Origin: Eledone cirrhosa
Taxonomy: Eukaryota
Assembly (NCBI GenBank): GCA_964016885.1
Contig: OZ024740.1
Coordinates: 173,724,001-173,788,000 of the forward strand
Direction of reading: 5' to 3'
Length of the DNA: 64,000 bases
The notes beneath the pieces were generated by a model that did not search any database, was not told the DNA's origin, and was given only the letters and a program-made list of their open reading frames with translations. Below, piece by piece: positions 21,518-63,353 of the stretch. How positions within the stretch are numbered: position 1 is the first letter of the stretch; each line of letters begins with the position of its first letter. Made by a program: the position numbers and the translations under genes.

Positions 21518-21613
21518 GAATGAAAAAGTACAAAGTAAATCAAAATAATTCTTTGTTATCAATGACAAACGTTGTACACATTCATCGTATCATATATATG
21601 TTCCGGAAACATG

Positions 21614-22833
21614 TTAATGTGTTTTGGCCGGAGTAAAGAAAACCGTTGGGGGTGTGAGATAGTGATTGGGCAAGATTTGACCATCAATACCATTAATAGT
21701 AACCTTTATATCGAAATCATCGTGAGCATCTAAACGGAGATGTTTCAGACTTGTGGTGATATCATATTTAAAAAGACGGTCAAATGCCCAAAACATTTCA
21801 TTTTCTCCGCCAAGAATACAGAATGTACCTCCAAATGCACATTCACCATCTTTTCTGCAGACATCAAAGTTAACATCAGCAGATTGACCAATGGTACGAA
21901 GTAAGAAACCAGCAAATACTCTGTCTTCATGTTGTATCTCTTGAAGATGGTCTTCCAACTGAGGAATGGTCATTCCGTGGAAATTAAGATTATCATAATC
22001 ATATTCAAGTGTATGGTAATCGAAAGATGTAATACCAGTAGAATGAGCTCTTGTAACAGCATTAGGATTGCTGTCTAAGTTGAACGGTTTTAATGGTTTA
22101 TTTAGTTTATTGATTTCGCAGTTAGCATCATTGTGAGGTAAGCCACGATACTTCTGTAATGCTTGCCATATAGCCCAAATACGATCAGTGTTGGAGTGAT
22201 GAATGTAAAAGAGAGGATCATAGGAAGTATAGTGAAGGGTTGACATACCATATGGACTACTACCACCAACCCAAGAATGAATAGCGTTGTGGCCTATTTC
22301 ATACTGGATTTCAAAATCACAGAAATCTGTTTGTTCCAGAGCTAATGCTATCTGGCGATAGAAGAATGATTTATCTCCCTTTTCTGGATCATCAAAAAGT
22401 TTTGCTCTGGGTGCTCTGGTTGTGTCAGTATTGGCAACATCAATATGGGCATGGTGGAAGGAGTTGTGTTTCTCTTCAGTGACCAGGATAGGTAAATTAG
22501 CGAAGGTAGTGGTCCAGTCCCAGTAAGGAATACCAACGTGAGATCCCTTAGCAACTAAAGCATCTTCCATTTGTTTAACCAACAATCTGTGCCAGTGGGG
22601 GAATGTTACCATTCCATGTTGGCAACATGCATATGCTGTACCATTTGGATAATGACATTTGAGGGGCATTCCATGATAAGAAGCAATACTCTGGTAACCA
22701 TTGTCTGAAGTATCAGCTTGTACTTTAGCCATGGCATCTCTTAGTTCTTTGATGTCTGTAGGAGTCAAGCTATTGACATTCTTCCTGACAATAACACCTT
22801 TCACGGGTTCTTTGTGTACCTCTTTCTTGAAAT
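21614..22833 (-). CDS. Hc: Hemocyanin copy 1 exon 12, FU-g and stop
   Basis: CCQHGMVTFPHWHR, HNAIH, HHSN; ends PAKTH-TAA. Confidence 0.95.
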
Positions 22834-25800
22834 CTATAGGGGAACAAGTAAAAAGACAAGAAGAAATGAAATGTGTGTTACAAACAAAGGAAGTAAAACG
22901 AATAAGTAAAATTTATAAAAAAATGGAGTGAAAATCAGTAAAAAAAAATACAATTATCGAACAACAACAACAATAAAATAACATTTGAAATAAAGTTGCA
23001 AATATTAGAAAAGCTGATAAAATATTAAACAAACCTTTAGCTGGAACATATATCATTGAAGGAGCTGGCAAGGAGTTAGAATCTAATATTTTTCCATCAA
23101 CGGTTTGGATTTCTACTTCAAGGTGAATAGTGCTTCCATGAACATACAAATCTTCCAAAGGAATGTGCATTTTATGGAGAACATGGGTAATATCAAGCTT
23201 GTAGGTTCTATCGAAATGCCATGGCATTTCATTTTCACCACCAAGTACAAATACTACACCAGCATGTTCACAAACTTTGTCTTTGCAGAGTTTCAAATGG
23301 ACATCAGCTGAGGTTTTGATACCAAAGAGTAAGAAGGAAGCAAAAACTCTGTCTACGTTCTGGTGTTTATGGATAGCCTTTTCCAGTTGATCTATATTCA
23401 TTCCATGGAATTCGAGATTATCATAATCATAACCGAGTTTGTGGTAGTTAAATAGATGTTGTGGTGTTGATGCAGCTCTTGTATGTAGATTTGGATTGGA
23501 TTCCCAAATGAAAGGCTTCATGGGGAATGATAACTGATCTAGAGCACAGTAAGCCTTATCATATGGTAATTTTCTGTGTTCCTGAAGAGCTTGCCAAATA
23601 GCCCAGAGACGATCAACCTGAATTTAAATACAAAGAATAGACAGTAATAAACATGATTTTATAATGGAATAATGGCCTCCGCATAAAGCAAATCACTAAA
23701 ACATTCATCACATCATACGATGAAATAACAAAGTGAACTAAGCAAGATATGTTTGTATAAAGATATTTGTTCTAATCAACAGACATTTATGAATGACTGA
23801 GCGTTGATCTTTTCAGAAATAAATGTTCAAAGTAAGTTCAATTTTATTTTACTAAAATACTGACGTGTTTAAAATATTAGAGTGAAATCAATATAAATGT
23901 AGTTGTATCAATATAAATATAATGTATAAATATTTCGTAATTTACCATTGAATGATGAATGTAGAAGACGGGATCAAAGGAACTATAGACCAAACTGGAC
24001 ATGGCATATTTCTGGTGACCACCAAGGAGGTAGTGAAGAGCATTATGGACTACTTCAAATTGAACTTCGAAGTCACAATAATCTTCTTGTTCAAACATCA
24101 GAAGTACTTGTTGGTAAAGATTAGACCCTTCTCCTTCACCGATTTCAAATAGTTCTGGTTGTACATCTCTAACAGTGTAGGTATCTTCCTGTTTGATGTA
24201 TCCCCTAAGGAATGGATTCTCGATCACGTTATCAGTCCAAGCATCATAGTAGTCAGGATCTGCTATAAGTCTAGGTAATTTTGCAATAGGTAATGTCCAA
24301 TCCCAATAGGGAACGGCAACGTTGGATCCATGTCGGCGCATAGAATCTTCAAAATGTAATAAGTAAACACGGTGCCAATGTGGGAAGACGGACATTCCAT
24401 GTAGACAACAAGCATATTGCGGATCTTCTGGACTAGGACAGATCGTTGAACCATGATAACTAGCAATTGTCTGGAATCCATGGTCACTTTCATCTTCCTT
24501 AACACGAGTAAGAGCTGACATAAGATTTTGAATATCTCTTTCATCCAAAGACGCTACATTTCGTCGGATATGATTTAGTGGGATGTCAATATCGACGCCT
24601 TGGTCTAAAAGAAATTTGAAAAAATGAAAATTAGTTTCAAATATTGACATTTTTATGCATGAATATTTTCATTTATATTACATAGGAACCTAAAACACTT
24701 ACGGATAGGTGGGATCCTTATTACAGTTGCTTCTGGAAGAAGGCCAGCTGGCAATTCAGTTCCATTGTGGGCAACTATTTTTGTTTTAATAGTGAAAGGT
24801 GAATCAAAATGTAACTTCATATCAGAAAGTATATCAGTAATTTCTATCTTGTAAAGACGGTCAAATGCCCATGGCATTTCTGCACTGCCTCCCAACACAG
24901 CAAAATGACTTCCTTCATGACATTCTCCTGCTTCATTACAGATCTAGAATAAATTAATAATGAGAAGAAATATATAATTTAAGGTTCCTCTCTTTGAAAA
25001 GGCACACATGCACTTACATAGACATTGCTTTTTCATGTACTTAACGACACTATCATATTATTCATAAATTTGAAATGTAAAGCTGTTTAAATGTAGTTAG
25101 ATGCATATAGTCGATAAACTGCTTATAGTCTTTGGAATTATTTTCAAAGCAATATGAATGAAAATACTCTTGTTACATCATTCTAGAAACACTTTCTTAT
25201 TTTACATCAAGTTGAAAGATATAATATTTTTGCCTTTTTACTTACATCAAATGTTGCATAAGCTGATGAACCAAATCCACTCAACAAAAAGCCAGCAAAA
25301 ACACGATCGTGCTCTCTTTGGTGTCTGATGTATGACTCTATCTGATTAATAGACATACTGTTAATATCTAGAATGTCGTAATCGTAATGGAAGTTTTCTC
25401 TGTATCTAAACATATCTTCAGGTTTGGATAATTTCGTGGTGAGATCATTCAAATTGTAAGGAGCTCCGAAAGCAAAAGGCTTCAAGGGAACCTTCATCAG
25501 TTCAAGAGCACAATGAGATTCGTAGGCATTAAGACCTCTCAATTTCTGCAATTCTTGCCAAATAACCCACAAACGATCGACACTAGAATGATGTAGGAAG
25601 AATAATGGATCGTAGGCTGCATAATGTAAGTGGTTCAAAGAATACTCTTCTTTTCCACCAATCCACGAGTGAATGGCATTATGAACAATCTCTAATTGTA
25701 TTTCAAAATCACAATAATCGGTCTGTTCCAAAGCTAAAGCGATGTTATCAAAGAGCCATGTTTGTCTTCCCAGTACTGGATGTTCATACAAATATTCGCT

Positions 25801-28800
25801 GATGTCACGTTTAGTCATAGTCTCTTCACTAATGAAAGAAATATGACCATGATTAAACGGGTTATATGCCTCTATTTTAGTGAAAGGATCAGAATACTTT
25901 TCAGAGGTTATAAAATCAGGAATCTTTGAAATAGGACGAGTCCAATCCCAATATGGAACGCCAACCTTAGCTCCATGTCTATGTAAAGCTTGTTCAAACT
26001 GAACAACGTACAACCTATGCCAGTGTGGGAATGTAGCCATACCATGAAGACAACAGGCATGTCTGTGTTTGGCAGTTGGGTTTGGACACAGAGGGGGAAG
26101 AGCATGGAATGAAGCGATTGCTTCGAAACCGTCAGATGATTTGTCCTTCTGCATTCTTCTCAAAGCGTGTACCAAAGAATTCATTTCAGACAGAGAGAGT
26201 CGTTCAACATTCTTTCGTGTTAAAAGTCCATTGCTATCTTCATGCGTTAAATCAATAGAATGATCTGAAAAGATATTAGAATAGAATTACTCTTAGTTGT
26301 TAAATAAAGCTCAATTAATAAATGATGTAGATATCCTCTTTGGTAAGAAATGGGAGTATCCAACAATCAGAGAGTAAATCTGATTGTCGCTATTATCTTA
26401 TTTAGTCATCTAGTCTAATCATAACTTACAACCTACTCAAATATAAATATTGTGCACAGTAAAAGCGAGAAGTGGTTTGATAGCTTACTGGGCTTCTATT
26501 AATGAAAATTGCGATTCTCTTCTTCTAGAAAAAGATGCTAGGATGATGGGTCAACTATTGATTACCTTCAAACAATTAACTGAAAAAACAAACGACATTA
26601 GAAGTGTGCAATGCTGAATGTGTTATAAGAGATTCGAGGGTGGACGTGGAATAAAAACAGAAAGTAAACATTCTTACCTTGTTTTGGAACAAAGATAATA
26701 GTTGGATGTGGGAAAATATCTGAACTGATTGAAGATCCATTAACGGTTGTGATTTCAGTTATGATACGGAAATGGCTGTTTTGGTTAAGGCCTAATAATT
26801 TCAACTGATCAGTTATTTCATATCGGAAGACACGGTCAAATTGCCATGGCATTTCAGACATTCCACCTAATACAGAGAAGACACCGACGTCGTGAGCACA
26901 GTTTTCTTCATGTTTAGAAGTAGGGACACAAATGAATATGTGGACATCAGCCGAAGCCTGTACACCATGAAGTAAGAATCCAGCAAAAACCCTGTCGTGA
27001 GACTTTTTCTCATCAATAAGATGTTCCAATTGAGTTATAGTGAGATCATAGAAGGACAAAGTGTCATATTTATAGTGTAAAACATTTTGGTAATCAAATA
27101 CATCATTTGGTGCACTATGAGTGAGTGTTAAACGATCATGGTTCGCGGTAGTGTTACTGAATGGACGCATGGGTACATTAAGTAGAGGTAATGCACAGTT
27201 GGCTTCATTATAAGGTAACTTTCGGAAACGTTGTAATTCTTGCCAAATCGCCCATAATCTATCAAGATTACTATGATGAAGGAAGAAGACTGGATCATAA
27301 GCTGCAAAATCCAATGATGACATAGAGTGAGGATCACGACCACCGAGCCACGAATGGATAGTGTTGTGAAGTACTTCAAAGTGGACTTCAAACTCACAGA
27401 AATCAGTTTGTTCCAAAACGAAAAGAGTGTGTTCGTAAAGGTATTTGTTACCAAATAATTCTTTTTGTGGATCTCGTTTGGTTTCCGAATTAAGGAACGA
27501 TATCTTTCCTTTGAAGAATGGATTTGGTTCAATGAGAAGTGTTCTTGAATTGTAATATGTGGCATCATTGATTAAAGCTGGAAGGTGATCAAATGGTTGT
27601 ACCCAATCCCAATAAGGTACAGCTACACCGGAACCTCTGGCTAACAATTCGTTCTCTACTAGAGCAACATATAATCTATGCCAGTGGGGAAAAGTTGGCA
27701 TGCCATGAATACAACATGTAAACACTTTGCTACCATCTTTGTTAGGACACTGTGCGGGCAATCCGTGGAATGAAGCAATCTGTTCGTATCTACCATCAGC
27801 TGCCATATCTTTGAAGGCACTTCTGAGTGATTCAATATCACCTCCAGTTAGATCGTGTAGATTTTTCCTAATTCGGTTTGCACTGGTTACAGGTTCGACC
27901 CACACACCCGCCTCGCCGAAATTACCTTAAGAAAAGAAACAAAATTATTGAATTATGAAAACAGTTAAAAAGTTATGTTTCATGTCATATATTAAATTAA
28001 TCCTTACCGAATACATGTGCTTAATTGACAGCGCTGGTCTAAATCAATATATAAGTGAGCGACAATATAATTATTATCTATTTTTAGAATATTTAATTCT
28101 ATTAGTTTTGCAACACAACATTTGCAACACTATTGTACACATTTGTACACATTTTAAATGTACCATTTATGAGATTGATATGATAATGGTTACTTACCAA
28201 GACCTGGTTCGTAGATAATTGCAGGTTCAAGGTTGACATCTGTTATTTCATTTCCAGTCAGGTCTTTCAGGTGGTATTCAATATGATATTTGTCGTTAAA
28301 ATGTAGATGTGCATCCTCCATCTGCTTGGTGATATCAGCTTTGTAAACGTGATCAAATTTCCAAGGCATTTCGTTAGTGCTACCCAGAACGTAAAATTCT
28401 CCAGCTTTCACTTGATCGGTGCTCTCATGAGCTCTGATATAGAATTCTACCAATGCAGACTTTTTAAAACCTTCCACCATAAATGTAGCAAAAATGCGGC
28501 TCGTCGCACGACGCCTGTTAATTTCTCTGTGTAACTGTGGAATAGATAATCCATTCAATTCGAGAATATCATATTCATAATGGAAATTCTTTTTGTAATC
28601 AAATACATCAAAAGGAACTGAATGTTCCCGAGTCATTGAATCAACATTGATGTCACTGGTAAGACTGAAAGGAGACATTGGTTTTCGTAGGGTTTCAATA
28701 GCACAGTTAGCACTGTTGTAACGATGTCCTCGGTACTTCTGTAGAGCTTGCCAAATGGCCCAAATTCGGTCAACATTGGAATGATGAAGTATGAAAATAG

Positions 28801-31800
28801 GATCATAGGCTGTATATTCGAGTGAAGACATAGAATATTGCTCTGTACCTCCAACAAGTGCGTGGATGTGATTATGAGCAATTTCAAATTGTACTTCGAA
28901 CGAACAAAAGTCTTCCTGTTCTAAGGCGTAAAGAACTTCATTTGCTAAGGAAGTGAATTCTCCGAAAGGTGGTTGAAGATATAGGTTTGGACTAGGAGAT
29001 CGGGTGGTATGTTCACCTAGTTCATCGATAACACCGCTAAAGAAAGGATTCGGATGACTTTCACCATTCTCATCAGTATATGTTTCTTCTTTTACCAGAG
29101 TAGGCAGTTCTGAAATCGGACGTGTCCAATCCCAATAAGGAATACCATTAGTGTATCCATTTCGTCGCAAACCATTTTCAAAGTTGATTGTCAGCAATCT
29201 ATGCCAATGAGGGAAAGTTGCCATTCCGTGATGACAACAAGCATATTTAACTTCAGCATCAGGACTAGGACACCATTGCGTGGATCCGTGAAAAGCAGCT
29301 ACTTGTTGATATCCACTGGCAGTTTTATCATCTTCGTAAGCTTGTAAAGCCTTCCTAAGAGCATTCATATCTGCGTGGGTCATTGAAGATACATCATGTC
29401 TGGAACGATACGTTTCGTCAAAGACAACGTCTGATTCATCTGTAAAAATTGATAGAATAAAATATAATTGCCAGTTCTATTTATGAATGGAACTTAAATG
29501 AGAATATAAAAAATAAAATATAATTTTAAAAGAAACTCTCGTAAAAAATATGGAGAGTGTTTCAGATTAATACAGTTTATATTTGCTTTAAAATTTATTA
29601 GAAAATTTGTTGAGTCAAAGATGTGAAGGATATTATATGAGAGTACTTACGTTTCCCTGGAGAGAATATCACAATAGGTTCTGGAATTGCGGTTGCTGGA
29701 AGGGCTGTTCCATTCATATCATTAATTTGTAAGTTTATGTGGTATTCAGCGTGCATATCTACACCAAGCTCAGCCAGTGCTTCAGTAATTTCATATTTAT
29801 AGAGTCTATCAAACCTCCATTCCATCTCTTTGCTGCCTCCAAGGATTGTTATTGAACCAGCCATGTAAGTATTACCGCCACTTTCGACATTGATCACAAC
29901 ATTTGCTGATGTTTTGATACCCATCAAAAGAAAACCAATGAACGCACGATCTTTAGCTTTATGCTCTTCGATATGTCTTTGAAGTTCTCTAACGGACATT
30001 CCTCCGAAGAAGAGCGTATCAAATGTATATTGTAAGTCAGCTTGATAATCATATACATCAGTTGGTACAGCGTGTATATATGTGTGCTTGTTGTTATTCA
30101 GTGGTGCTTCAAAGGCAAATGGTTTCAATGGGCGATGGACCTCTGAAAGAGCACAGTATGGTTTGTAGGGCTTTCCACGATGGATCTGCAATGCTTGCCA
30201 TACTGCCCACATTCTATCAACTTGTGAATGGTGTAGCCAGAAAAGAGGATCAAATGATGTATAATGTAAAGTTGACATTGAGTAAGGCTCATTGCCGCCG
30301 ACCCAAGCGTGAATTGCATTATGGGTAACTTCAAACTGTACTTCGAAATCACAGAAATCTTCTTGTTCAAATGCTAACATCATGCCGTCATAGAGATATC
30401 CGTGATGTCCTTTTGTTGGTTGTTCAAACAATCTAATATATTAGAATAAAAATAAATACGAAATATAGAGTTAACCCTTGTCATATAGATAAATAAATAA
30501 GTTCTAAAATAATTACTTTAAACAATTTCTGATGTGCGAATAAATTAACAGTTTTTAGTGTATTGTAATAGTTCAAACCAAACAAGAATATATATTTGAC
30601 AACAGTATGTATATAGCACTGGTAATAAAAGTCTAGTTTGAAAATGTGGAAATGAAAACAAAGATTCTCATAAGAGTCACTTAATCGAATGTTATAAATT
30701 AGAATGTTTTATCGAAAGTAATTTAAGGACTTTATATTGCTCTAGCGGTTACGTTTGGAATTGTTAAATGTTTTCTAAGTCTTTCAGGTTTTGATTATTG
30801 TCGAATTTCAAACAAAACAGGAGATTTTGCGCATTGCTAAATGTTAATATGAATGTATTCAACGTATTTAAAATGCTATGACATTTACAAACCTGGCATC
30901 AATACTTCTAGCGGTGAAAACATCACTGTGCAAGAATTCAATTGGTGCACGGTAGAAAGGATTTGGTTTTACTTCTTTTGTGTAAGGATCTTCATATGTT
31001 TCAACAGCAACCAGATGGGGCAATGATGTGCTAGGTGTTGTCCAGTCCCAATAAGGAACACCTATCGGAGATCCACGAGCAAGAAGAGCATCCTCAAACT
31101 GTATAACTACAAGCCTGTGCCAGTGTGGAAAAGTGGCCATTCCATGAGTACAACATGCAACACGGTCAGTAGCATCAGGCTCTGGACATTTAGCAGGAAG
31201 ACCATGGAATTCAGCTAAGGCTTGGTAACCGTCGATGGATTTATCATCCATGAATCGTTCCATGGCAACTCTCAGTTCGTATTCTTCCTCTGTTGTCAAA
31301 CTATGAAGATCTTTACGGACAGTTAAACCAGATTTATCCATTATCACCATATCAGCTGAAATAAAGGATAATATTTGAATAACAGAAATCAGATAGAATA
31401 TTTTGCAGAAAAATGAAATTACCGTAATAAATATAACTTTACTTGGTTTAGGTTTGATTATTTGATAATTCAGGCGAGGCAGTTATACAGAAGATATTGT
31501 TTGTATAGTTTAGCTGACCTATCTAGATTTAGATTTTAAATATATTAATTTCCAAAATACTACTTGCTATAGGGTTATTTTCTTGTGGTGCATTTTGGCG
31601 ATAAGTTATTTATCTGTTGCAAAATATAGTCAGATGTAATGGAGAGCATATATGCAAATTAGATTTACATTTCACAATGATTTTCATTATTTTCGAAAAA
31701 AAAAAAATTGGACGAAGATATTTTAGTAAGTAAATATTGTGATTATGAACTACAAATCACGTATTTGATATACACTTCTGTATGAATTATACAATGTTTT

Positions 31801-33981
31801 CTAAAGTTGTCTAAAAGAATTTTTACTCACCATCTTTAAAGTCATGAGCGGGAATATATGTGACTGTCGGTCGTGGTATTGTGCCATCGGGCAAGAGAGT
31901 GCCATTAATTGCCATAATGTCAGCATGGACGTAGTAGTTGCCATCCAAAGGAATACCGAGAGATTTAACAACATCTGTAATCTCAAAGAGGAAAGGATAA
32001 CCAAAGTTCCAAGTCATCTCGTGTATACCACCAAGAATGAAGAAAGAACCGACATGATTGTTACAATTGTCACTGTGTCTTTTGTCTTTACTTGGGACAC
32101 AAACTGCGATACGGACGTTGGCAGAGGTCTTGATACCTCCTAATCTGAAATTAGCAAATGCTCGTGGATGATGTTGTCGTTCTTTTAATACTGTATCTAG
32201 ATGTGGAATGTCCATTCCATTGAGATGAAGATCGTCATAATCATAACCTAGTTCATTGTAGTCAAATAGATCAACTGGTTTGGCGTGTTCCTTAGTAAGA
32301 GCAATAGGATTGGTGTCACGACCGAACGGTTCCATTGGCTTATGGAACATATTCAAGCCACAGTTAGCATTACCATCAAGGCCTCTATGTTTCTGGAGAG
32401 CTTGCCAAACAGTAAACAAACGTTCAACGTTTGAATGATGCAAGAAGAAGAGTGGATCGTAAGAAGTATATTCCAAACTGGACATTGAGTGAGCGAAACG
32501 ACCACCAACAAGATAATGGATTGGGTTGTGAGCAACTTCAAACTGAACTTCAAAATGGCAGTAATCTTCTTGTTCTAAAGCTAAAAGAATACCTTCTAAT
32601 AAGAAGTTATCTCCTCCCTTCGAAGCTTGGAACAAATGGACATCAATGGCTCTAGCAGTGGCTTTGTTCTCAAATTTTATATCTCCAGAGTAGAAGACGT
32701 TCTTTTTAGCTTTGTGAGAAGAAGGATCCATAAAAAGTGGATGACTCACGAGCTCAGGCAGATGACTCAATGGTTGAGTCCAGTCCCAGTAAGGAACACC
32801 AAGAGTTGAACCATGGGCTGCCAATGCTTGCTCAAACTGTACAATGTACAGTCTATGCCAAAGAGGGAACGTTGGCATACCATGCAAACAACAGACCACA
32901 GTACTTCCATCTGGTGCTTTACAATCTGCTGGTTCACCATGGTAGCCTGCGATGGCTTGGTAACCAGTCGGAGATTCATCATCCTGCATGGTACGTAGGG
33001 CTACCTGCAGATTAAGAACTTCCTCTTCAGATAAGCTGTCCACATTTTTACGGAGTAAATTACCTGAAATATATAGAAAGAGAAAATTTCATTAATAATT
33101 GTATTTATCTGACACTGAGGATTCATATATGAAATTTCTAAACATGCAAATTATTGTACATGGAAACTATATTATAATAAATATAGGAGATAATAACAGC
33201 AAAATAAGACGGTCAAATACTTGTTAACTATTTGCTATCGTGTGTTCAACTGAAGTTTGAACTCTTCAAATATTTACGTAAGCCCAGAATTCATTTAAAT
33301 ATGACATTGCATATGTGTTACAGTTGACTTTCCAGAAAAGATTTCTGTTAATTATCAACTGTATCTGGTATCGCTTCTTGTGGCATAAAGTATAACTATT
33401 TCAATAAATAATATATGGTGGATGTCTATCAACCATCTCAATTGTTCTATTATATCATTTGTGGTTTCGTCATAATTATGTGAGATCGAAAGATTTCTTT
33501 TAAAACGTTTCACGCGAATCTCTTTAGGTTCTTATCTGGTCATATAAGGGATACTCGATCTATGAGGAATACACGTTGTAGAATACGTTGTGAGCAACAT
33601 CTTTCTACGCAGCTATTGATAATTCGGTACCAGCATCGACGTTCCCTCGAGTTAGACTTTATATTTAGGGTTACAAAATGTGATGAATCAATGTACATTA
33701 GATGCAGTAATAAGATAAATGTCAGTTTAGAAGAGCGAAGAGAATTATTTTTCGCAATACCAGCACCAAATAATTCAATTTAGCAAGTACGAGCAACATG
33801 ATGGATGTCTAAAATCCACTTTTTCTCTAGTTTACTTTTATAAACGTATTTATCCAAACTAAGCATTAATCATTTTCATAACAGGTGGTTATATGATAAT
33901 TAAAACAAATGAAGGGGAAATATTTATTACCTTCTGCGGTTTGCCCGGATAACCAGAACTGAAAAATAGAAATACACTTTC

Positions 33982-34036
<55 letters not shown>

Positions 34037-34319: not shown

Positions 34320-34383
<64 letters not shown>

Positions 34384-50527: not shown

Positions 50528-51747
50528 TTAATGTGTTTTGGCCGGAGTAAAGAAAACCGTTGGGGGTGTGAGATAGTGATTGGGCAAGATTTGACCATCA
50601 ATACCATTAATAGTAACCTTTATATCGAAATCATCGTGAGCATCTAAACGGAGATGTTTCAGACTTGTGGTGATATCATATTTAAAAAGACGGTCAAATG
50701 CCCAAAACATTTCATTTTCTCCGCCAAGAATACAGAATGTACCTCCAAATGCACATTCACCATCTTTTCTGCAGACATCAAAGTTAACATCAGCAGATTG
50801 ACCAATGGTACGAAGTAAGAAACCAGCAAATACTCTGTCTTCATGTTGTATCTCTTGAAGATGGTCTTCCAACTGAGGAATGGTCATTCCGTGGAAATTA
50901 AGATTATCATAATCATATTCAAGTGTATGGTAATCGAAAGATGTAATACCAGTAGAATGAGCTCTTGTAACAGCATTAGGATTGCTGTCTAAGTTGAACG
51001 GTTTTAATGGTTTATTTAGTTTATTGATTTCGCAGTTAGCATCATTGTGAGGTAAGCCACGATACTTCTGTAATGCTTGCCATATAGCCCAAATACGATC
51101 AGTGTTGGAGTGATGAATGTAAAAGAGAGGATCATAGGAAGTATAGTGAAGGGTTGACATACCATATGGACTACTACCACCAACCCAAGAATGAATAGCG
51201 TTGTGGCCTATTTCATACTGGATTTCAAAATCACAGAAATCTGTTTGTTCCAGAGCTAATGCTATCTGGCGATAGAAGAATGATTTATCTCCCTTTTCTG
51301 GATCATCAAAAAGTTTTGCTCTGGGTGCTCTGGTTGTGTCAGTATTGGCAACATCAATATGGGCATGGTGGAAGGAGTTGTGTTTCTCTTCAGTGACCAG
51401 GATAGGTAAATTAGCGAAGGTAGTGGTCCAGTCCCAGTAAGGAATACCAACGTGAGATCCCTTAGCAACTAAAGCATCTTCCATTTGTTTAACCAACAAT
51501 CTGTGCCAGTGGGGGAATGTTACCATTCCATGTTGGCAACATGCATATGCTGTACCATTTGGATAATGACATTTGAGGGGCATTCCATGATAAGAAGCAA
51601 TGCTCTGGTAACCATTGTCTGAAGTATCAGCTTGTACTTTAGCCATGGCATCTCTTAGTTCTTTGATGTCTGTAGGAGTCAAGCTATTGACATTCTTCCT
51701 GACAATAACACCTTTCACGGGTTCTTTGTGTACCTCTTTCTTGAAAT
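50528..51747 (-). CDS. Hc: Hemocyanin copy 2 exon 12, FU-g and stop
   Basis: Translation identical to the copy 1 FU-g ORF. Confidence 0.95.
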
Positions 51748-54700
51748 CTATAGGGGAACAAGTAAAAAGACAAGAAGAAATGAAATGTGTGTTACAAACA
51801 AAGGAAGTAAAACGAATAAGTAAAATTTATAAAAAAATGGAGTGAAAATCAGTAAAAAAAAATACAATTATCGAACAACAACAACAATAAAATAACATTT
51901 GAAATAAAGTTGCAAATATTAGAAAAGCTGATAAAATATTAAACAAACCTTTAGCTGGAACATATATCATTGAAGGAGCTGGCAAGGAGTTAGAATCTAA
52001 TATTTTTCCATCAACGGTTTGGATTTCTACTTCAAGGTGAATAGTGCTTCCATGAACATACAAATCTTCCAAAGGAATGTGCATTTTATGGAGAACATGG
52101 GTAATATCAAGCTTGTAGGTTCTATCGAAATGCCATGGCATTTCATTTTCACCACCAAGTACAAATACTACACCAGCATGTTCACAAACTTTGTCTTTGC
52201 AGAGTTTCAAATGGACATCAGCTGAGGTTTTGATACCAAAGAGTAAGAAGGAAGCAAAAACTCTGTCTACGTTCTGGTGTTTATGGATAGCCTTTTCCAG
52301 TTGATCTATATTCATTCCATGGAATTCGAGATTATCATAATCATAACCGAGTTTGTGGTAGTTAAATAGATGTTGTGGTGTTGATGCAGCTCTTGTATGT
52401 AGATTTGGATTGGATTCCCAAATGAAAGGCTTCATGGGGAATGACAACTGATCCAGAGCACAGTAAGCCTTATCATATGGTAATTTTCTGTGTTCCTGAA
52501 GAGCTTGCCAAATAGCCCAGAGACGATCAACCTGAATTTAAATACAAAGAATAGACAGTAATAAACATGATTTTATAATGGAATAATGGCCTTCGCATAA
52601 AGCAAATCACTAAAACATTCATCACATCATACGATGAAATAACAAAGTGAACTAAGCAAGATATGTTTGTATAAAGATATTTGTTCTAATCAACAGACAT
52701 TTATGAATGACTGAGCGTTGATCTTTTCAGAAATAAATGTTCAAAGTAAGTTCAATTTTATTTTACTAAAATACTGACGTGTTTAAAATATTAGAGTGAA
52801 ATCAATATAAATGTAGTTGTATCAATATAAATATAATGTATAAATATTTCGTAATTTACCATTGAATGATGAATGTAGAAGACGGGATCAAAGGAACTAT
52901 AGACCAAACTGGACATGGCATATTTCTGGTGACCACCAAGGAGGTAGTGAAGAGCATTATGGACTACTTCAAATTGAACTTCGAAGTCACAATAATCTTC
53001 TTGTTCAAACATCAGAAGTACTTGTTGGTAAAGATTAGACCCTTCTCCTTCACCGATTTCAAATAGTTCTGGTTGTACATCTCTAACAGTGTAGGTATCT
53101 TCCTGTTTGATGTATCCCCTAAGGAATGGATTCTCGATCACGTTATCAGTCCAAGCATCATAGTAGTCAGGATCTGCTATAAGTCTAGGTAATTTTGCAA
53201 TAGGTAATGTCCAATCCCAATAGGGAACGGCAACGTTGGATCCATGTCGGCGCATAGAATCTTCAAAATGTAATAAGTAAACACGGTGCCAATGTGGGAA
53301 GACGGACATTCCATGTAGACAACAAGCATATTGCGGATCTTCTGGACTAGGACAGATCGTTGAACCATGATAACTAGCAATTGTCTGGAATCCATGGTCA
53401 CTTTCATCTTCCTTAACACGAGTAAGTGCTGACATAAGATTTTGAATATCTCTTTCATCCAAAGACGCTACATTTCGTCGGATATGATTTAGTGGGATGT
53501 CAATATCGACGCCTTGGTCTAAAAGAAATTTGAAAAAATGAAAATTAGTTTCAAATATTGACATTTTTATGCATGAATATTTTCATTTATATTACATAGG
53601 AACCTAAAACACTTACGGATAGGTGGGATCCTTATTACAGTTGCTTCTGGAAGAAGGCCAGCTGGCAATTCAGTTCCATTGTGGGCAACTATTTTTGTTT
53701 TAATAGTGAAAGGTGAATCAAAATGTAATTTCATATCAAAAAGTATATCAGTAATTTCTATCTTGTAAAGACGGTCGAATGCCCATGGCATTTCTGCACT
53801 GCCTCCCAACACAGCAAAATGACTTCCTTCATGACATTCTCCTGCTTCATTACAGATCTAGAATAAATTAATAATGAGAAGAAATATGTAATTTACGGTA
53901 TCTGTCTTTGAAAAGACACACATGCACATAAACGGTTACACATATCATATTATCCATTTCATCAAGCTGTTAAATAATCATTTGAATTGTTACCTGTACA
54001 TTAAATTATAAATATATACATTAGATGTGGCTAGTTAAATTAAAAATATATTTACATAGCATATCGTTGATAAAATGTTTAATTATTTAAAATTTCTTGA
54101 ACATATTCTTATGACACAATGTTTTAGAAAGGTTCTATTATTTTAGATTGATTTGTTTTAATAATAACTTTTTTGCCTTTTTACTTACATCAAATGTTGC
54201 ATAAGCTGATGAACCAAATCCACTCAACAAAAAGCCAGCAAAAACACGATCGTGCTCTCTTTGGTGTCTGATGTATGACTCTATCTGATTAATAGACATA
54301 CTGTTAATATCTAGAATGTCGTAATCGTAATGGAAGTTTTCTCTGTATCTAAACATATCTTCAGGTTTGGATAATTTCGTGGTGAGATCATTCAAATTGT
54401 AAGGAGCTCCGAAAGCAAAAGGCTTCAAGGGAACCTTCATCAGTTCAAGAGCACAATGAGATTCGTAGGCATTAAGACCTCTCAATTTCTGCAATTCTTG
54501 CCAAATAACCCACAAACGATCGACACTAGAATGATGTAGGAAGAATAATGGATCGTAGGCTGCATAATGTAAGTGGTTCAAAGAATACTCTTCTTTTCCA
54601 CCAATCCACGAGTGAATGGCATTATGAACAATCTCTAATTGTATTTCAAAATCACAATAATCGGTCTGTTCCAAAGCTAAAGCGATGTTATCAAAGAGCC

Positions 54701-57700
54701 ATGTTTGTCTTCCCAGTACTGGATGTTCATACAAATATTCGCTGATGTCACGTTTAGTCATAGTCTCTTCACTAATGAAAGAAATATGACCATGATTAAA
54801 CGGGTTATATGCCTCTATTTTAGTGAAAGGATCAGAATACTTTTCAGAGGTTATAAAATCAGGAATCTTTGAAATAGGACGAGTCCAATCCCAATATGGA
54901 ACGCCAACCTTAGCTCCATGTCTATGTAAAGCTTGTTCAAACTGAACAACGTACAACCTATGCCAGTGTGGGAATGTAGCCATACCATGAAGACAACAGG
55001 CATGTCTGTGTTTGGCAGTTGGGTTTGGACACAGAGGGGGAAGAGCATGGAATGAAGCGATTGCTTCGAAACCGTCAGATGATTTGTCCTTCTGCATTCT
55101 TCTCAAAGCGTATACCAAAGAATTCATTTCAGACAGAGAGAGTCGTTCAACATTCTTTCGTGTTAAAAGTCCATTGCTATCTTCATGCGTTAAATCAATA
55201 GAATGATCTGAAAAGATATTAGAATAGAATTACTCTTAGTTGTTAAATAAAGCTCAATTAATAAATGATGTAGATATCCTCTTTGGTAAGAAATGGGAGT
55301 ATCCAACAATCAGAGAGTAAATCTGATTGTCGCTATTATCTTATTTAGTCATCTAGTCTAATCATAACTTACAACCTACTCAAATATAAATATTGTGCAC
55401 AGTAAAAGCGAGAAGTGGTTTGATAGCTTACTGGGCTTCTATTAATGAAAATTGCGATTCTCTTCTTCTAGAAAAAGATGCTAGGATGATGGGTCAACTA
55501 TTGATTACCTTCAAACAATTAACTGAAGAAACAAATGACATTAGAAGCGTCAATACTGAATGTGTTATAAGAGATTCGAGGGTGGACGTGGAATAAAAAC
55601 AGAAAGTAAACATTCTTACCTTGTTTTGGAACAAAGATAATAGTTGGATGTGGGAAAATATCTGAACTGATTGAAGATCCATTAACGGCTGTGATTTCAG
55701 TTATGACACGGAAATGGCTGTTTTGGTTAAGGCCTAATAATTTCAACTGATCAGTTATTTCATATCGGAAGACACGGTCAAATTGCCATGGCATTTCAGA
55801 CATTCCACCTAATACAGAGAAGACACCGACGTCGTGAGCACAGTTTTCCTCATGTTTAGAAGTAGGGACACAAATGAATATGTGGACATCAGCCGAAGCC
55901 TGTACACCATGAAGTAAGAATCCAGCGAAAACCCTGTCGTGGGACTTTTTCTCCTCAATAAGATGTTCCAAATGAGTTATAGTGAGATCAAAGAAGGATA
56001 AAGTGTCATATTTATAGTGTAAAACATTTTGGTAATCAAATACATCATTTGGTGCACTATGAGTGAGTGTTAAACGATCATGGTTTGCGGTAGTGTTACT
56101 GAATGGACGCATGGGTACATTAAGTAGAGGTAATGCACAGTTGGCTTCATTATAAGGTAACTTTCGGAAACGTTGTAATTCTTGCCAAACCGCCCATAAT
56201 CTATCAAGATTACTATGATGAAGGAAGAAGACTGGATCATAAGCTGCAAAATCCAATGATGACATAGAGTGAGGATCACGACCACCGAGCCACGAATGGA
56301 TAGTGTTGTGAAGTACTTCAAAGTGGACTTCAAACTCACAGAAATCAGTTTGTTCCAAAACGAAAAGAGTGTGTTCGTAAAGGTATTTGTTACCAAATAA
56401 TTCTTTTTGTGGATCTCGTTTGGTTTCCGAATTAAGGAACGATATCTTTCCTTTGAAGAATGGATTTGGTTCAATGAGAAGTGTTCTTGAATTGTAATAT
56501 GTGGCATCATTGATTAAAGCTGGAAGGTGATCAAATGGTTGTACCCAATCCCAATAAGGTACAGCTACACCGGAACCTCTGGCTAACAATTCGTTCTCTA
56601 CTAGAGCAACATATAATCTATGCCAGTGGGGAAAAGTTGGCATGCCATGAATACAACATGTAAACACTTTGCTACCATCTTTGTTAGGACACTGTGCGGG
56701 CAATCCGTGGAATGAAGCAATCTGTTCGTATCTACCATCAGCTGCCATATCTTTGAAGGCACTTCTGAGTGATTCAATATCACCTCCAGTTAGATCGTGT
56801 AGATTTTTCCTAATTCGGTTTGCACTGGTTACAGGTTCGACCCACACACCTGCCTCGCCGAAATTACCTTAAGAAAAGAAACAAAATTATTGAATTATGA
56901 AAACAGTTAAAATGTTATGTTTCATGTCATATATTAAATTAATCCTTACCGAATACATGTGCTTAATTGACAGCGCTGGTCTAAATCAATATATAAGTGA
57001 GCGACAATATAATTATTATCTATTTTTAGAATATTTAATTCTATTAGTTTTGCAACACAACATTTGCAACACTATTGTACACATTTGTACACATTTTAAA
57101 TGTACCATTTATGAGATTGATATGATAATGGTTACTTACCAAGACCTGGTTCGTAGATAATTGCAGGTTCAAGGTTGACATCTGTTATTTCATTTCCAGT
57201 CAGGTCTTTCAGGTGGTATTCAATATGATATTTGTCGTTAAAATGTAGATGTGCATCCTCCATCTGCTTGGTGATATCAGCTTTGTAAACGTGATCAAAT
57301 TTCCAAGGCATTTCGTTAGTGCTACCCAGAACGTAAAATTCTCCAGCTTTCACTTGATCGGTGCTCTCATGAGCTCTGATATAGTATTCTACCAATGCAG
57401 ACTTTTTAAAACCTTCCAGCATAAAGGTAGCAAAAATGCGGCTCGTCGCACGACGCCTGTTAATTTCTCTGTGTAACTGTGGAATAGATAATCCACTTAA
57501 TTCGAGAATATCATATTCGTAATGGAAATTCTTTTTGTAATCAAATACATCAAAAGGAACTGAATGTTCCCGAGTCATTGAATCAACATTGATGTCACTG
57601 GTAAGACTGAAAGGAGACATTGGTTTTCGTAGGGTTTCAATAGCACAGTTAGCACTGTTATAACGATGTCCTCGGTACTTCTGTAGAGCTTGCCAAATGG

Positions 57701-60700
57701 CCCAAATTCGGTCAACATTGGAATGATGAAGTATGAAAATAGGATCATAGGCTGTATATTCAAGTGAAGACATAGAATATTGCTCTGTACCTCCAACAAG
57801 TGCGTGGATGTGATTATGAGCAATTTCAAATTGTACTTCGAACGAACAAAAGTCTTCCTGTTCTAAGGCGTAAAGAACTTCATTTGCTAAGGAAGTGAAT
57901 TCTCCGAAAGGTGGTTGAAGATATAGGTTTGGACTAGGAGATCGTGTAGTATGTTCACCTAGTTCATCGATAACACCGCTAAAGAAAGGATTCGGGTGAC
58001 TTTCACCATTCTCATCAGTATATGTTTCTTCTTTTACCAGAGTAGGCAGTTCTGAAATCGGACGTGTCCAATCCCAATAAGGAATACCATTAGTGTATCC
58101 ATTTCGTCGTAGACCATTTTCAAAGTTGATTGTCAGCAATCTATGCCAATGAGGGAAAGTTGCCATTCCGTGATGACAACAAGCATATTTAACTTCAGCA
58201 TCAGGACTAGGACACCATTGCGTGGATCCGTGAAAAGCAGCTACTTGTTGATATCCACTGGCAGTTTTATCATCTTCGTAAGCTTGTAAAGCCTTCCTAA
58301 GAGCATTCATATCTGCGTGGGTCATTGAAGATACATCATGTCTGGAACGATACGTTTCGTCAAAGACAACGTCTGATTCATCTGTAAAAATTGATAGAAT
58401 AAAATATAATTGCCAGTTCTATTTATGAATGGAACTTAAATGAGAATATAAAAAATAAAATATAATTTTAAAAGAAACTCTCGTAAAAAATATGGAGAGT
58501 GTTTCAGATTAATACAGTTTATATTTGCTTTAAAATTTATTAGAAAATTTGTTGAGTCAAAGATGTGAAGGATATTATATGAGAGTACTTACGTTTCCCT
58601 GGAGAGAATATCACAATAGGTTCTGGAATTGCGGTTGCTGGAAGGGCTGTTCCATTCATATCATTAATTTGTAAGTTTATGTGGTATTCAGCGTGCATAT
58701 CTACACCAAGCTCAGTCAGTGCTTCAGTAATTTCATATTTATAGAGTCTATCAAACCTCCATTCCATCTCTTTGCTGCCTCCAAGGATTGTTATTGAACC
58801 AGCCATGTAAGTATTACCGCCACTTTCGACATTGATCACAACATTTGCTGATGTTTTGATACCCATCAAAAGAAAACCAATGAACGCACGATCTTTAGCT
58901 TTGTCCTCTTCGATATGTCTTTGAAGTTCTCTAACGGACATTCCTCCGAAGAAGAGAGTATCATATGTATATTGTAAGTCAGCTTGATAATCATATACAT
59001 CAGTTGGCACAGCGTGTATATATGTGTGCTTGTTGTTATTCAGTGGTGCTTCAAAGGCAAATGGTTTCAATGGGCGATGGACCTCTGAAAGAGCACAGTA
59101 TGGTTTGTAGGGCTTTCCACGATGGATCTGCAATGCTTGCCATACTGCCCACATTCTATCAACTTGTGAATGGTGTAGCCAGAAAAGAGGATCAAATGAT
59201 GTATAATGCAAAGATGACATTGAGTAAGGCTCATTGCCGCCGACCCAAGCGTGAATTGCATTATGGGTAACTTCAAACTGTACTTCGAAATCACAGAAAT
59301 CTTCTTGTTCAAATGCTAACATCATGCCGTCATAGAGATATCCGTGATGTCCTTTTGTTGGTTGTTCAAACAATCTAATATATTAGAATAAAAATAAATA
59401 CGAAATATAGAGTTAACCCATGTCATATAGATAAATAAATAAGTTCTAAAATAATTACTTTAAACAATTTCTGATGTGCGAATAAATTAACAGTTTTTAG
59501 TGTATTGTAATAGTTCAAACCAAACAAGAATATATATTTGACAACAGTATGTATATAGCACTGGTAATAAAAGTCTAGTTTGAAAATGTGGAAATGAAAA
59601 CAAAGATTCTCATAAGAGTCACTTAATCGAATGTTATAAATTAGAATGTTTTATCGAAAGTAATTTAAGGACTTTATATTGCTCTAGCGGTTACGTTTGG
59701 AATTGTTAAATGTTTTCTAAGTCTTTTAGGTTTTGATTATTGTCGAATTTCAAACAAAACAGGAGATTTTGCGCATTGCTAAATGTTAATATGAATGTAT
59801 TCAACGTATTTAAAATGCTATGACATTTACAAACCTGGCATCAATACTTCTAGCGGTAAAAACATCACTGTGCAAGAATTCAATTGGTGCATGGTAGAAA
59901 GGATTTGGCTTTACTTCTTTTGTGTAAGGATCTTCATAAGTTTCAACAGCAACCAGATGGGGCAAAGATGTGCTAGGTGTTGTCCAGTCCCAATAAGGAA
60001 CACCTATCGGAGATCCACGAGCAAGAAGAGCATCTTCAAACTGTATAACTACAAGTCTGTGCCAGTGTGGAAAAGTAGCCATTCCATGAGTACAACATGC
60101 AACACGATCAGTAGCATCAGGCTCTGGACATTTAGCAGGAAGACCATGGAATTCAGCTAAGGCTTGGTAACCGTCGATGGATTTATCATCCATGAATCGT
60201 TCCATGGCAACTCTCAGTTCGTATTCTTCCTCTGTTGTCAAACTATGAAGTTCTTTACGGACAGTTAAACCAGATTTATCCATTGTCACCATATCAGCTG
60301 AAATAAAGGATAATATTTGAATAACAGAAATCAGATAGAATATTTTTTGCAGGAACATGAAATTTACGGAATAAGTATTACTTTACTTGGTTTAGGTTTG
60401 ATTATTTAATATTTCAGCCGAGGCAGTTATACAGGAGATAGTGTTTGTATAATTTAGGTGCCCTATCTAGATTTCGATGTAAAATATGATAATTTTTAAT
60501 TGCTACTTATTACAAAATTTAAGTGCCGACTTCATAACACATTTTAAAGATAATTTACTTGTCTGTTGTAGAACATCATCAGATGAAATTGGGAACATGT
60601 ATATACATTAAATCTTATCATAGTGGTTTTTATAGTGCTCGAAAAGCAAATGGGACGACGAAAGTTTAGTAAGTAAATATTTTATATATGAATACAACTA

Positions 60701-63353
60701 CAAATAATTATTTGATATACACTTCTATGTAAATCATACAACGTTTTTTAAAATTGCCTAAATAAGAAAAAAATTCTTACTCACCGTCTTTGAAGTCATG
60801 AGCGGGAATATATGTGACTGTCGGTCGTGGTATTGTGCCATCGGGCAAGAGAGTGCCATTAATTGCCATAATGTCAGCATGGACGTAGTAGTTGCCATCC
60901 AAAGGAATACCGAGAGATTTAACAACATCTGTAATCTCAAAGAGGAAAGGATAACCAAAGTTCCAAGTCATCTCGTGTATACCACCAAGAATGAAGAAAG
61001 AACCGACATGATTGTTACAATTGTCACTGTGTCTTTTGTCTTTACTTGGGACACAAACTGCGATACGGACGTTGGCAGAGGTCTTGATACCTCCTAATCT
61101 GAAATTAGCAAATGCTCGTGGATGATGTTGTCGTTCTTTTAATACTGTATCTAGATGTGGAATGTCCATTCCATTGAGATGAAGATCGTCATAATCATAA
61201 CCTAGTTCATTGTAGTCAAATAGATCAACTGGTTTGGCGTGTTCCTTAGTAAGAGCAATAGGATTGGTGTCACGACCGAACGGTTCCATTGGCTTATGGA
61301 ACATATTCAAGCCACAGTTAGCATTACCATCAAGGCCTCTATGTTTCTGGAGAGCTTGCCAAACAGTAAACAAACGTTCAACGTTTGAATGATGCAAGAA
61401 GAAGAGTGGATCGTAAGAAGTATATTCCAAACTGGACATTGAGTGAGCGAAACGACCACCAACAAGATAATGGATTGGGTTGTGAGCAACTTCAAACTGA
61501 ACTTCAAAATGGCAGTAATCTTCTTGTTCTAAAGCTAAAAGAATACCTTCTAATAAGAAGTTATCTCCTCCCTTCGAAGCTTGGAACAAATGGACATCAA
61601 TGGCTCTAGCAGTGGCTTTGTTCTCAAATTTTATATCTCCAGAGTAGAAGACGTTCTTTTTAGCTTTGTGAGAAGAAGGATCCATAAAAAGTGGATGACT
61701 CACGAGCTCAGGCAGATGACTCAATGGTTGAGTCCAGTCCCAGTAAGGAACACCAAGAGTTGAACCATGGGCTGCCAATGCTTGCTCAAACTGTACAATG
61801 TACAGTCTATGCCAAAGAGGGAACGTTGGCATACCATGCAAACAACAGACCACAGTACTTCCATCTGGTGCTTTACAATCTGCTGGTTCACCATGGTAGC
61901 CTGCGATGGCTTGGTAACCAGTCGGAGTTTCATCATCCTGCATGGTACGTAGGGCTACCTGCAGATTAAGAACTTCCTCTTCAGATAAGTTGTCCACATT
62001 CTTACGGAGCAAATTACCTGAAATATAGAAAGAGGAAATTTCATTAATAATTATCTTTTCTGACACTGGTGCTTATTTCAAGAAATCTTTTTCAAAGTGA
62101 ATTATTGAAATGTTTGATTTCTGAAATTTGTTTTTAAGACTTTTTTGCTCGACTGAAATTGAAACCCCTCAAATGCTTACGTATACTTTGACTAAAAAAT
62201 CGTTATATGAAGAGTCAGAAACGATCATAAAGTCGGGATATACTTAAATATTTGGCACTGGTTATTTGATACATTTGACATATCAGTAGTGATTTCTCTT
62301 TGTTGTTAACTGTATCTCGAATAACTTCATGTGGCTTTTGATAACTATTCTGGGATGAAAGGGAATCTGTCATCTCACATGTTCTGTTTTATCGTTTGTA
62401 GTTTTACACATCGCTCGTCATTATTATCCGTGAGATCGAGAGATATCTATTATAACGTTGCAGGCGAATCTCTCTAGCTTCTTACCTGGTGATACAAGGG
62501 ATACTCGATATATGAGGAATAAACGTCGTGGAATATGTGGTGAGGAACATCTTTCTACGCATGTATTGATCGCTCGGTAACAGTATCGAAGTTCTCCCCT
62601 TAATGGAGACAATAATTTGTGATTATAAAATGTAGCCAATGAATGTACAATAGCTTTATTAATATGGACCGGCCTACAAGAACGAAGCGTCTTGTTTTTC
62701 ACACTAGTGATGGTTTTAATTTTAGCAGATGGGAGAAGCAGGATAGATGTCTAAAACCCACTCTCTTGTTTATTTAGATAGACATACTAAACTAATTAAC
62801 CAAACTCGTTTCTAATTAATTTTACACCATGTGGTTATGCGATAATTAAAATAGATAGAAGGAAAATATTCATTACCTTCTGCAATTTGTCCGGATACCC
62901 ATAACTAAAAAAGTAGAAATACATTTTTAATGATATATAAAAATATGACATTTAAATACAGCATTAAATATGAACGTCAAACATGTAGGAAATAAGAATA
63001 GCGATGTGCAAATTAGGATTTTTAGCATTTACCATTTAAATGATTTCCAGTATTAAATGTGTTAATAATATTTCTACTTTTGGTAAAATGCCAGCAATAC
63101 TCCAGCGCATTACTGGTACTTTATTTTATCGACCCCGTTAGGATGAAAGGCAAAGCTAACCTCGATGGGATTTGAGCTCAGAACGCAAAGGGCCATAACT
63201 CTATGCTGCAAAGCATGGTGTCTGATGCTCTACCGATACTGCCAAACTAATAAAATAGAAAAGTTGATGACCTCGATATGTGTGTAGAAAACTAATGAAT
63301 TATTTTCAACTTACGGCAAAGACGATCGCAAAAAGACAAGGAATTTTCATCAT
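50528..63353 (-). CDS. Hc: Molluscan (octopod-type) hemocyanin subunit, copy 2; signal peptide + FU-a..g, 2918 aa. join(complement): 63315-63353, 62877-62904, 60785-62017, 59835-60297, 58593-59374, 57140-58381, 55620-56867, 54189-55207, 53617-53857, 52860-53518, 51949-52531, 50528-51747
   Basis: Same exon lengths, splice sites and copper motifs as copy 1. About 20 aa differences in the mature chain and 4 in the signal peptide, counted by eye. Confidence 0.97.
51949..52531 (-). CDS. Hc: Hemocyanin copy 2 exon 11, FU-f C-part
   Basis: Homologous to 23035-23617. Confidence 0.93.
52860..53518 (-). CDS. Hc: Hemocyanin copy 2 exon 10, FU-f N-part
   Basis: Homologous to 23946-24604. Confidence 0.93.
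53617..53857 (-). CDS. Hc: Hemocyanin copy 2 exon 9, FU-e C-part
   Basis: Homologous to 24703-24943. Confidence 0.92.
54189..55207 (-). CDS. Hc: Hemocyanin copy 2 exon 8, FU-e main part
   Basis: Homologous to 25246-26264. Confidence 0.94.
55620..56867 (-). CDS. Hc: Hemocyanin copy 2 exon 7, FU-d
   Basis: Homologous to 26678-27925. Confidence 0.95.
57140..58381 (-). CDS. Hc: Hemocyanin copy 2 exon 6, FU-c
   Basis: Homologous to 28198-29439. Confidence 0.95.
58593..59374 (-). CDS. Hc: Hemocyanin copy 2 exon 5, FU-b C-part
   Basis: Homologous to 29651-30432. Confidence 0.93.
59835..60297 (-). CDS. Hc: Hemocyanin copy 2 exon 4, FU-b N-part
   Basis: Homologous to 30893-31355. Confidence 0.93.
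60785..62017 (-). CDS. Hc: Hemocyanin copy 2 exon 3, FU-a
   Basis: ORF 60777-62066; 1233 nt. Confidence 0.95.
62877..62904 (-). CDS. Hc: Hemocyanin copy 2 exon 2, 28-nt micro-exon (LWVSGQIAE-G)
   Basis: ttttag|TTA...GAA G|gtaatg. Confidence 0.88.
63065..63246 (-). mobile_element. SINE inserted in copy 2 intron 1
   Basis: Reverse complement of the 41549 family; absent from copy 1 intron 1. Confidence 0.75.
63315..63353 (-). CDS. Hc: Hemocyanin copy 2 exon 1 (MMKIPCLFAIVFA)
   Basis: Homologous to 34619-34657; donor gtaagt. Confidence 0.9.

Follow-up and report, generated by a model that had tools for sequence, protein, structure and literature searches.

How can neighbouring genes be almost identical over thousands of nucleotides (nt), introns included, and heavily diverged in the stretches in between? 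This question is raised by two hemocyanin genes in a stretch of 64,000 nt from Eledone cirrhosa (assembly GCA_964016885.1, contig OZ024740.1, positions 173,724,001 to 173,788,000; hereafter the window, to which coordinates refer unless a contig is named). An initial annotation had described them as a tandem pair of old origin. In a genome search we found that the two genes, A and B, have a third companion on the same contig, copy C (G000:C1:173898547-173911736), so that the pair is a trio. Copy C is on the same strand and lies 111 kb above the start of B; A and B are 29 kb apart and C is 124-153 kb from A and B. Based on the comparison of the three copies, on read depth and on a second species, we consider it very probable that the mosaic arises as three copies from an old duplication are repeatedly overwritten by ectopic, DNA-templated gene conversion (concerted evolution).

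All three copies are intact genes of 12 exons that encode an A/G-type hemocyanin of 2918 amino acids (aa). A and B have GT/AG at every junction and an open frame throughout.

21614..34657, minus strand: hemocyanin copy A, ATG to stop, 2918 aa, with a signal-peptide-like leader and functional units (FUs) a-g
34657-34619, 33958-33931, 33063-31831, 31355-30893, 30432-29651, 29439-28198, 27925-26678, 26264-25246, 24943-24703, 24604-23946, 23617-23035, 22833-21614, minus strand: the coding exons of copy A
50528..63353, minus strand: hemocyanin copy B, with 12 exons as in A and 2918 aa, of which 24 are unlike A

Self-BLAST joined A and B in a single match of 11.7 kb (21439-33117 against 50352-62068, 97%). 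Tracts were called with a two-state hidden Markov model (HMM) on the copy alignment, and windowed identity was also computed. The following blocks were found.

A 21598..24973, B 50512..53887: homogenised tract 1, 8 mismatches in 3376 positions (0.2%); 16 nt of the 3' untranslated region (UTR), FU-g, FU-f, FU-e2 and introns 9-11
24974..25226: core of intron 8 (within FU-e) of A, unlike B and near-identical to C
53888..54169: core of intron 8 of B, private to B
A 25227..31400, B 54170..60342: homogenised tract 2, 52 mismatches in 6173 positions (0.8%); FU-e1, FU-d, FU-c, FU-b and introns 4-7
A 31401..31838, B 60343..60792: a/b linker intron (intron 3), distinct in all three copies; 17.5-19.5% different by pair, 22.6% in the HMM block
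A 31839..33100, B 60793..62052: homogenised tract 3 (FU-a exon), 5 mismatches in 1260 positions (0.4%)
33101..35100: diverged 5' shell of A, from intron 2 through exon 2, intron 1 and exon 1 to the promoter; 24% different from B
62053..63833: diverged 5' shell of B (HMM block)

The blocks between and around the tracts carry 22.6-33.9% mismatches in addition to indels, and the steps are abrupt in the printed A-B alignment, giving the step changes in identity (0.2-0.8% against 23-34%) that the initial annotation had described. Its first two tracts were recovered with ends within about 5 nt and its 3' break was again placed 16 nt past the stop; its third tract exists, with ends at 31839-33100 instead of 31831-33063. 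Whole introns had also been said to be copied nearly base for base, and between A and B seven of them differ at 0-4 positions each (introns 4, 5, 6, 7, 9, 10 and 11: 2/460, 0/211, 1/272, 4/412, 0/98, 1/328 and 0/201). The diverged introns 1, 2, 3 and 8 differ at 99/384, 184/773, 80/456 and 54/280 positions. The proposed divergence of the promoter together with introns 1-2 held for the introns but not for the core promoter, the 5' UTR and exon 1. Divergence in the 150 nt that precede the ATG is 10.7% (A-B), 16.1% (A-C) and 19.5% (B-C), and exon 1 has 0-1 changes in 39 nt between copies. When the intron columns were concatenated, the longest stretch without a difference was 430 nt for A-B, 263 nt for A-C and 216 nt for B-C, far above the maxima of 2000 shuffles (83, 61 and 61 nt), and the mosaic is therefore not due to chance.

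The third copy made the pattern considerably more informative. Exons 3-12 are 0-3.9% different across all pairs, with a synonymous divergence of 2.1% (A-B), 2.6% (A-C) and 2.4% (B-C). Introns 9-11 are common to A, B and C (0-1.2%). Intron 8 is common to A and C only (A-C 4/302, 1.3%; A-B 54/280, 19.3%), and introns 4-7 are common to A and B only, with introns 6-7 differing by 0.4-1.0% for A-B and by 16-17% for A-C. Against C, gapped alignment makes the percentages of introns 4 and 5 too low, and the HMM blocks are the better guide there; in the region of tract 2, C has the exons in common with A and B but not the cores of introns 4-7. Within intron 4, all three copies share 297 nt at 99% identity. 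Every pair is diverged in introns 1-3 and the 3' flank (16-33%), the introns at 16-27%. The opposite groupings of intron 8 and introns 6-7 fit no single tree with rate variation. As whole introns were crossed, and as part of intron 4 is common to all copies, the template must be DNA.

The HMM switched state 6 times within 13 kb for A-B and 14 times for each pair with C. Over the three pairs 34 tract ends were called, which after merging of duplicates gave 22 distinct, though not independent, ends. All but one of these (21/22) are no more than 80 nt from the edge of a coding exon, a zone that covers 26% of the gene span and 39% of its non-coding part. Several residues private to C (437-439, 843-847 and 1240-1251) are encoded at the ends of exons that border escaped introns, and repeat insertions private to one copy sit in the escaped introns 1 and 2. 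One of them is in intron 1 of B:

63063..63245: dispersed repeat of about 185 nt in intron 1 of B only; the family is also present in intron 2 of C

Repeats of this family (180-190 nt) also occur at 16790-16970, 41555-41735, 44850-45220 and 46115-46295, besides 63063-63245, and are common on contigs C26 and C27. A different, high-copy repeat (contig depth in the hundreds to thousands) lies in intron 1 of A at 34160-34300 and is absent from B and C.

We compared the copies with assembly-independent read contigs (unitigs) from runs X1-X3. The private flank and intron 2 of A (20500-21627 and 33058-33973) were covered by contigs at 6-12x without a single difference, which we took as single-copy depth (1x). 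Shared tracts (21687-24973, 25227-26296 and 31839-33035) stood at 19-44x, about three times the private depth within each run, and one contig at 36.6, 21.3 and 25x covered all of 21687-24973. The contigs break at or beside tract ends (24973, 25227, 26296, 30729 and 31839). For intron 8 a double-depth form (24.8, 15.3 and 12.3) was found next to a single-depth alternative (16.2, 7.8 and 7.2), and the intron variants of B and C were present at single depth. Depth of one, two or three units thus tracks the number of copies having each block, which supports three copies with truly shared sequence.

The age of the diverged shells was addressed with one read run (X4) of one related species, compared over window positions 30700-35300, where single-copy depth is 15-18. 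Contigs of the FU-a and FU-b1 exons were found at 69-82x, which would indicate that four or five copies collapse there too. These contigs differ from A at 12/307, 10/258 and 21/428 positions (3.9-4.9%). At the same blocks A-B differences are 8/307, 0/258 and 0/428 and A-C differences 4/307, 0/258 and 7/428 (ranges 0-2.6% and 0-1.6%). Single-copy contigs of the related species matched A at about 90% in the shell (40/401 and 48/452 in intron 2, 85/868 from intron 1 to the promoter), and within E. cirrhosa the same regions differ by 24-27% (A-B) and 29-38% (A-C). Other single-copy contigs skip intron 2 or match the core promoter alone, as expected of other paralogs. The shell of A is nearer to the second species than to B or C, so that the shells predate the species split; by corrected distance (0.11 against 0.29-0.33) they are roughly 2.5-3 times as old. 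The exons were homogenised after the split. After removal of 5 non-exon rows from the 40 compared, 27 of the 35 exon differences separate A, B and C together from the related species, 2 have the related species agreeing with B, and 6 form one cluster in which it agrees with C:

32639..32648: cluster of 6 substitutions in 10 bp common to A and B; C and the related species have the other state

At 31362, a 7-nt insertion is present in C and in all compared X4 contigs and missing from A and B, another change confined to A and B.

Four other explanations were weighed against repeated conversion. Near-identical tandem genes are hard to assemble, and diverged paralogs could have been collapsed, cross-polished or had their block variants swapped. 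The unitigs give threefold depth in shared tracts and single depth with no differences in private blocks, a similar collapse is seen in the related species, and mis-phasing alters which copy is the odd one and not whether a block has one, two or three variants, so that we regard an artefact as very improbable, even though X1-X3 may be the source sample and their contigs lose rare variants and give no phase. Scarcely more credit can be given to a birth-and-death scenario, in which the duplications would be recent and specific to each lineage, the exons would be under purifying selection and parts of the non-coding sequence would evolve fast. This is the published reading for Enteroctopus, at about 13 Mya in the available part of PMC3945787, proteins do group by lineage and copy number varies (3 against 4). 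However, under one tree intron 8 (A-C 1.3%, A-B 19%) conflicts with introns 6-7, selection on protein does not account for a divergence of 2% at synonymous sites and of 0-1% over whole introns, and the position of the shell of A relative to the second species contradicts recent duplication for E. cirrhosa.

Chimeric copies made by unequal crossing-over, in place of non-crossover conversion, would be compatible with head-to-tail copies on one strand and with a copy number that changes, the related species having apparently four or five. This explanation is about as unlikely as recent duplication: it has to account for 6 and 14 switches in 13 kb, the 10-kb flanks have no collinear homology, each pair sharing 0-6 short matches there that are scattered and of the size of dispersed repeats, and an inverted hemocyanin pair elsewhere in the genome (contig C26, see below) is equally homogenised. 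The clustering of tract ends by exon edges, the sharing by C of exons but not of the cores of introns 4-7, and retro-elements nearby (RVT_1 frames at 12.1-13.6 kb) could also suggest that the template was spliced hemocyanin cDNA. As the main route this is contradicted, and as an explanation of the locus it is extremely unlikely, because seven whole introns were copied between A and B, A, B and C share the 297 nt of intron 4 at 99% identity and no copy has lost an intron.

Repeated gene conversion between old copies thus remains the strongly favoured explanation, and the core interpretation of the initial annotation is supported: step changes, read depth (which makes collapse unlikely) and the groupings in the second species, with intron 2 and promoter by paralog and exons by species, all agree with it. 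Several observations nevertheless weigh against it. The converted introns show no rise in GC content (20-32%, like the diverged ones), GC at third codon positions (GC3) is 0.316 and changes in the odd copy are balanced (56 against 49); the locus thus lacks the GC signature on which Carson and Scherer relied. Runs X1-X3 come from one sample, possibly the one used for the assembly, and unitigs hide rare variants and cannot phase. The second-species evidence comes from a single run of a single species, from 8 of 81 pieces and 40 of 350 difference rows, with unphased contigs, and an intron 3 like that of A was not seen among those 8 pieces, where depth was 2-3. In addition, the copies of Octopus vulgaris and O. 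sinensis group by paralog and not by species, and between Octopus paralogs FU-g differs by 27-39 residues against 0-12 in FU a-f (0-4 in FU-g of E. cirrhosa); homogenisation is accordingly neither complete nor uniform.

In the mechanism that we propose, purifying selection would keep the long exons similar enough to serve as mutual repair templates. Once non-coding sequence has taken up indels or a repeat, its homology would be too low and it would be locked out, and tract ends would for this reason lie near exon edges. Occasional long tracts would cross short introns and reset them, more commonly between A and B, which are 29 kb from each other, than in exchanges with the more distant C (124-153 kb). 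Hemocyanin is a very abundant blood protein, and for this reason extra dosage of one near-uniform subunit is the likeliest ground for keeping the copies; we lean towards this putative role with modest confidence, and conversion would then be a by-product that selection tolerates or favours. The diverged flanks may also give the copies different expression; the core promoter is still 80-90% alike. Two candidate signals were found in the flanks of A:

34725..34731, minus strand: putative TATA-like box, spotted by eye, about 70 nt above the ATG of A and kept in B and C
21512..21517, minus strand: AATAAA in the diverged 3' flank, 97 nt past the stop of A, at equal distance in B and at 76 nt in C

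The family identity of the trio was established from the protein of copy A and its relatives. The last exon of A, encoding FU-g, matches the Pfam domains Tyrosinase (PF00264) and Haemocyan_bet_s (PF14830); a match to TcpS (E 0.009, below the cut-off) was regarded as chance. The protein is 88.9% identical to the G-type of Enteroctopus dofleini and is collinear with it and with P0023, with seven FUs (a-g), without FU-h and without a duplicated FU-d. Four type-3 copper-site patterns match 7/7 FUs in A, B and C; a fifth pattern, which defines the first His more strictly, matches 5/7. Six phase-1 linker introns separate the FUs, with internal introns in FU-b, FU-e, FU-f and the leader; four internal introns are reported for Octopodoidea in the accessible text of PMC7931591. 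In a tree of 25 proteins, built with a quick method (partial OdH-A excluded, P0067 split at its annotated fusion, C26 copies taken from exon cores), two old clades were resolved and A, B and C fall inside the A/G type, not the R type. The trio is 87-89% identical to Octopus and Enteroctopus proteins and 84-85% to those of Argonauta. The protein P0067 (5821 aa, O. sinensis "hemocyanin 1-like") is two tandem genes fused by annotation, with a leader peptide beginning at the join.

The other octopods were compared as proteins, the species of CAI and GAB accessions being assigned from accession series and named neighbours. On one contig each, there are three A/G-type proteins in O. vulgaris, three gene units in O. 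sinensis and four accessions in Argonauta; the R-type copies of each number two to four. The A/G-type proteins group by lineage (E. cirrhosa, Octopus, Argonauta), with 96.7-99.6% identity within a lineage. One O. sinensis copy differs in FU-d at 0/416 positions from its neighbour and at 13/416 from its ortholog, which would reflect either recent conversion or assembly collapse. Residue 518, a single site, is Met or Ile among the paralogs of E. cirrhosa, both Octopus species and Argonauta. Exon 2 (33931-33958 and 62877-62904) ends in S-AEG in the upstream-most copy C and in the PAKGH-ending Octopus copy, and in I-AEG in B and the remaining O. sinensis copies, a one-residue hint of positional orthology. 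Paralog-variable residues overlap between E. cirrhosa and Octopus at 5 sites against 2.0 expected and between E. cirrhosa and Argonauta at 1 against 0.4, mostly weak signals; Octopus and Enteroctopus share 11, mainly in one linker, with an expectation that is too low as OdH-A is partial. Taken together, these data allow a tentative proposal to which we give slightly less than an even chance: the A/G cluster would be ancestral to octopods as far apart as Argonauta and Octopus, with conversion holding its copies uniform within each lineage, the published recent, independent duplications and their dates would be artefacts, and the escaping unit would differ by lineage. The collar unit FU-g would have escaped in Octopus, though it is the most homogenised unit in E. 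cirrhosa, and the Met/Ile difference at residue 518 would have lasted between paralogs in the four species.

The literature on octopod A/G-type hemocyanins was considered from the accessible parts of PMC7931591 and PMC3945787. The trio is like the OdH-A and OdH-G of E. dofleini and "OvH type-A" in its seven FUs, four internal introns, FU-g with DPEKG, 88-89% identity and place in one clade. In contrast, isoforms are there read from coding sequence as recent or independent duplications, and those parts describe neither a mosaic nor a three-copy tandem locus. No report of gene conversion or concerted evolution in a molluscan hemocyanin was found in searches of titles and the starts of abstracts; most subscription papers, including the original octopus gene and dating work, lie outside that coverage and may hold an earlier suggestion, and the word "concerted" occurs a single time in PMC7931591. 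The conversion process itself is textbook knowledge, and the hemocyanin trio is very probably a further case of it.

The closest parallel is the HMA4 triplication of Arabidopsis halleri (10.1101/2025.10.29.685298). According to the available text it has three head-to-tail copies in which exons and short introns are homogenised and long introns escape, and it is modelled by conversion that falls with divergence, together with purifying and dosage selection. The long introns of HMA4 are, however, at most about 6% apart, whereas the escaped hemocyanin blocks differ by 16-35%; escape at the hemocyanin locus is not by length alone, since intron 8 (302 nt) escapes in B and intron 10 (328 nt) stays homogenised; and the older hemocyanin shells are also present in a second species. 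In BMP8A/B, DDX19A/B and TUBG1/2 (PMC2720389, as available), exon-intron-exon blocks above 97% within a species likewise lie beside paralog-grouped blocks and the trees mimic independent duplications, but GC is raised in their converted blocks, and in hemocyanin almost the whole coding sequence converts. The accessible part of the review PMC3924837 describes yeast ribosomal protein duplicates, in which the coding sequence is similarly converted, the regulatory sequence diverged and the setting one of dosage, and states that conversion ends as indels or repeats build up. Primate opsins, in the same source, show the reverse, with introns converted and an exon protected; Octopus FU-g may be opsin-like, whereas FU-g of E. 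cirrhosa is not. For octopods, conversion was proposed for tandem reflectin and tyrosinase clusters of the argonaut (PMC9635652); these are other families, the conversion is called "possible" from trees and dot plots, and hemocyanin is absent from the main text as available.

The results matter mainly for dating and interpreting molluscan hemocyanin isoforms. Hemocyanin has served to date splits among cephalopods and the origins of isoforms (PMC3945787, accessible part). In the trio, a clock based on synonymous sites gives an age about ten times too low (2% against 16-27%), so that duplications would look far younger. Temperature adaptation was inferred from cloned fragments with isoforms indistinguishable from alleles, as stated in the available text of PMC4491423; in E. 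cirrhosa such clone sets draw on three A/G-type and two R-type genes. The locus also offers a compact test, with three copies and two species, of how tracts end and domains escape.

The two R-type genes form an unlinked head-to-head pair (G000:C26:21933042-21953659, minus strand, and 21965511-22016822, plus strand) with 6 differences in 2897 compared positions. Unlike the trio, which carries DPEKG, this pair is without it. Most of the gene body is homogenised: exon cores differ by 0-0.6% and stretches between exons by 0.2-5.9%, save for large length differences, and identity then steps down to about 83% in the 3' flank (83.5%). One copy has a second intron of 26 kb and an intron 4 that is 6 kb larger, and intron minisatellites differ in length. 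A block of 1.1 kb with the leader and the promoter is 94% identical between the two genes. The pair clusters with proteins named type R in the accessible text of PMC7931591, the accessions being matched by number offset. By inference, this R type and the A/G type may correspond to the two FU-g isoforms in the available text of PMC4491423. A further hemocyanin-like stretch near the start of contig C27 (G000:C27:60900-70200) is 32-45% identical to P0023, with FU a-c only within the 50 kb examined, and may be a short hemocyanin-like gene or a remnant.

Elsewhere in the window, two frames with RVT_1 matches in a GC-rich stretch at 12112-13592 (minus strand) represent a retro-element in pieces, and a weak GIY-YIG match at 7754-8290 (plus strand; E 0.0026, below the cut-off) is possibly a Penelope-like remnant.

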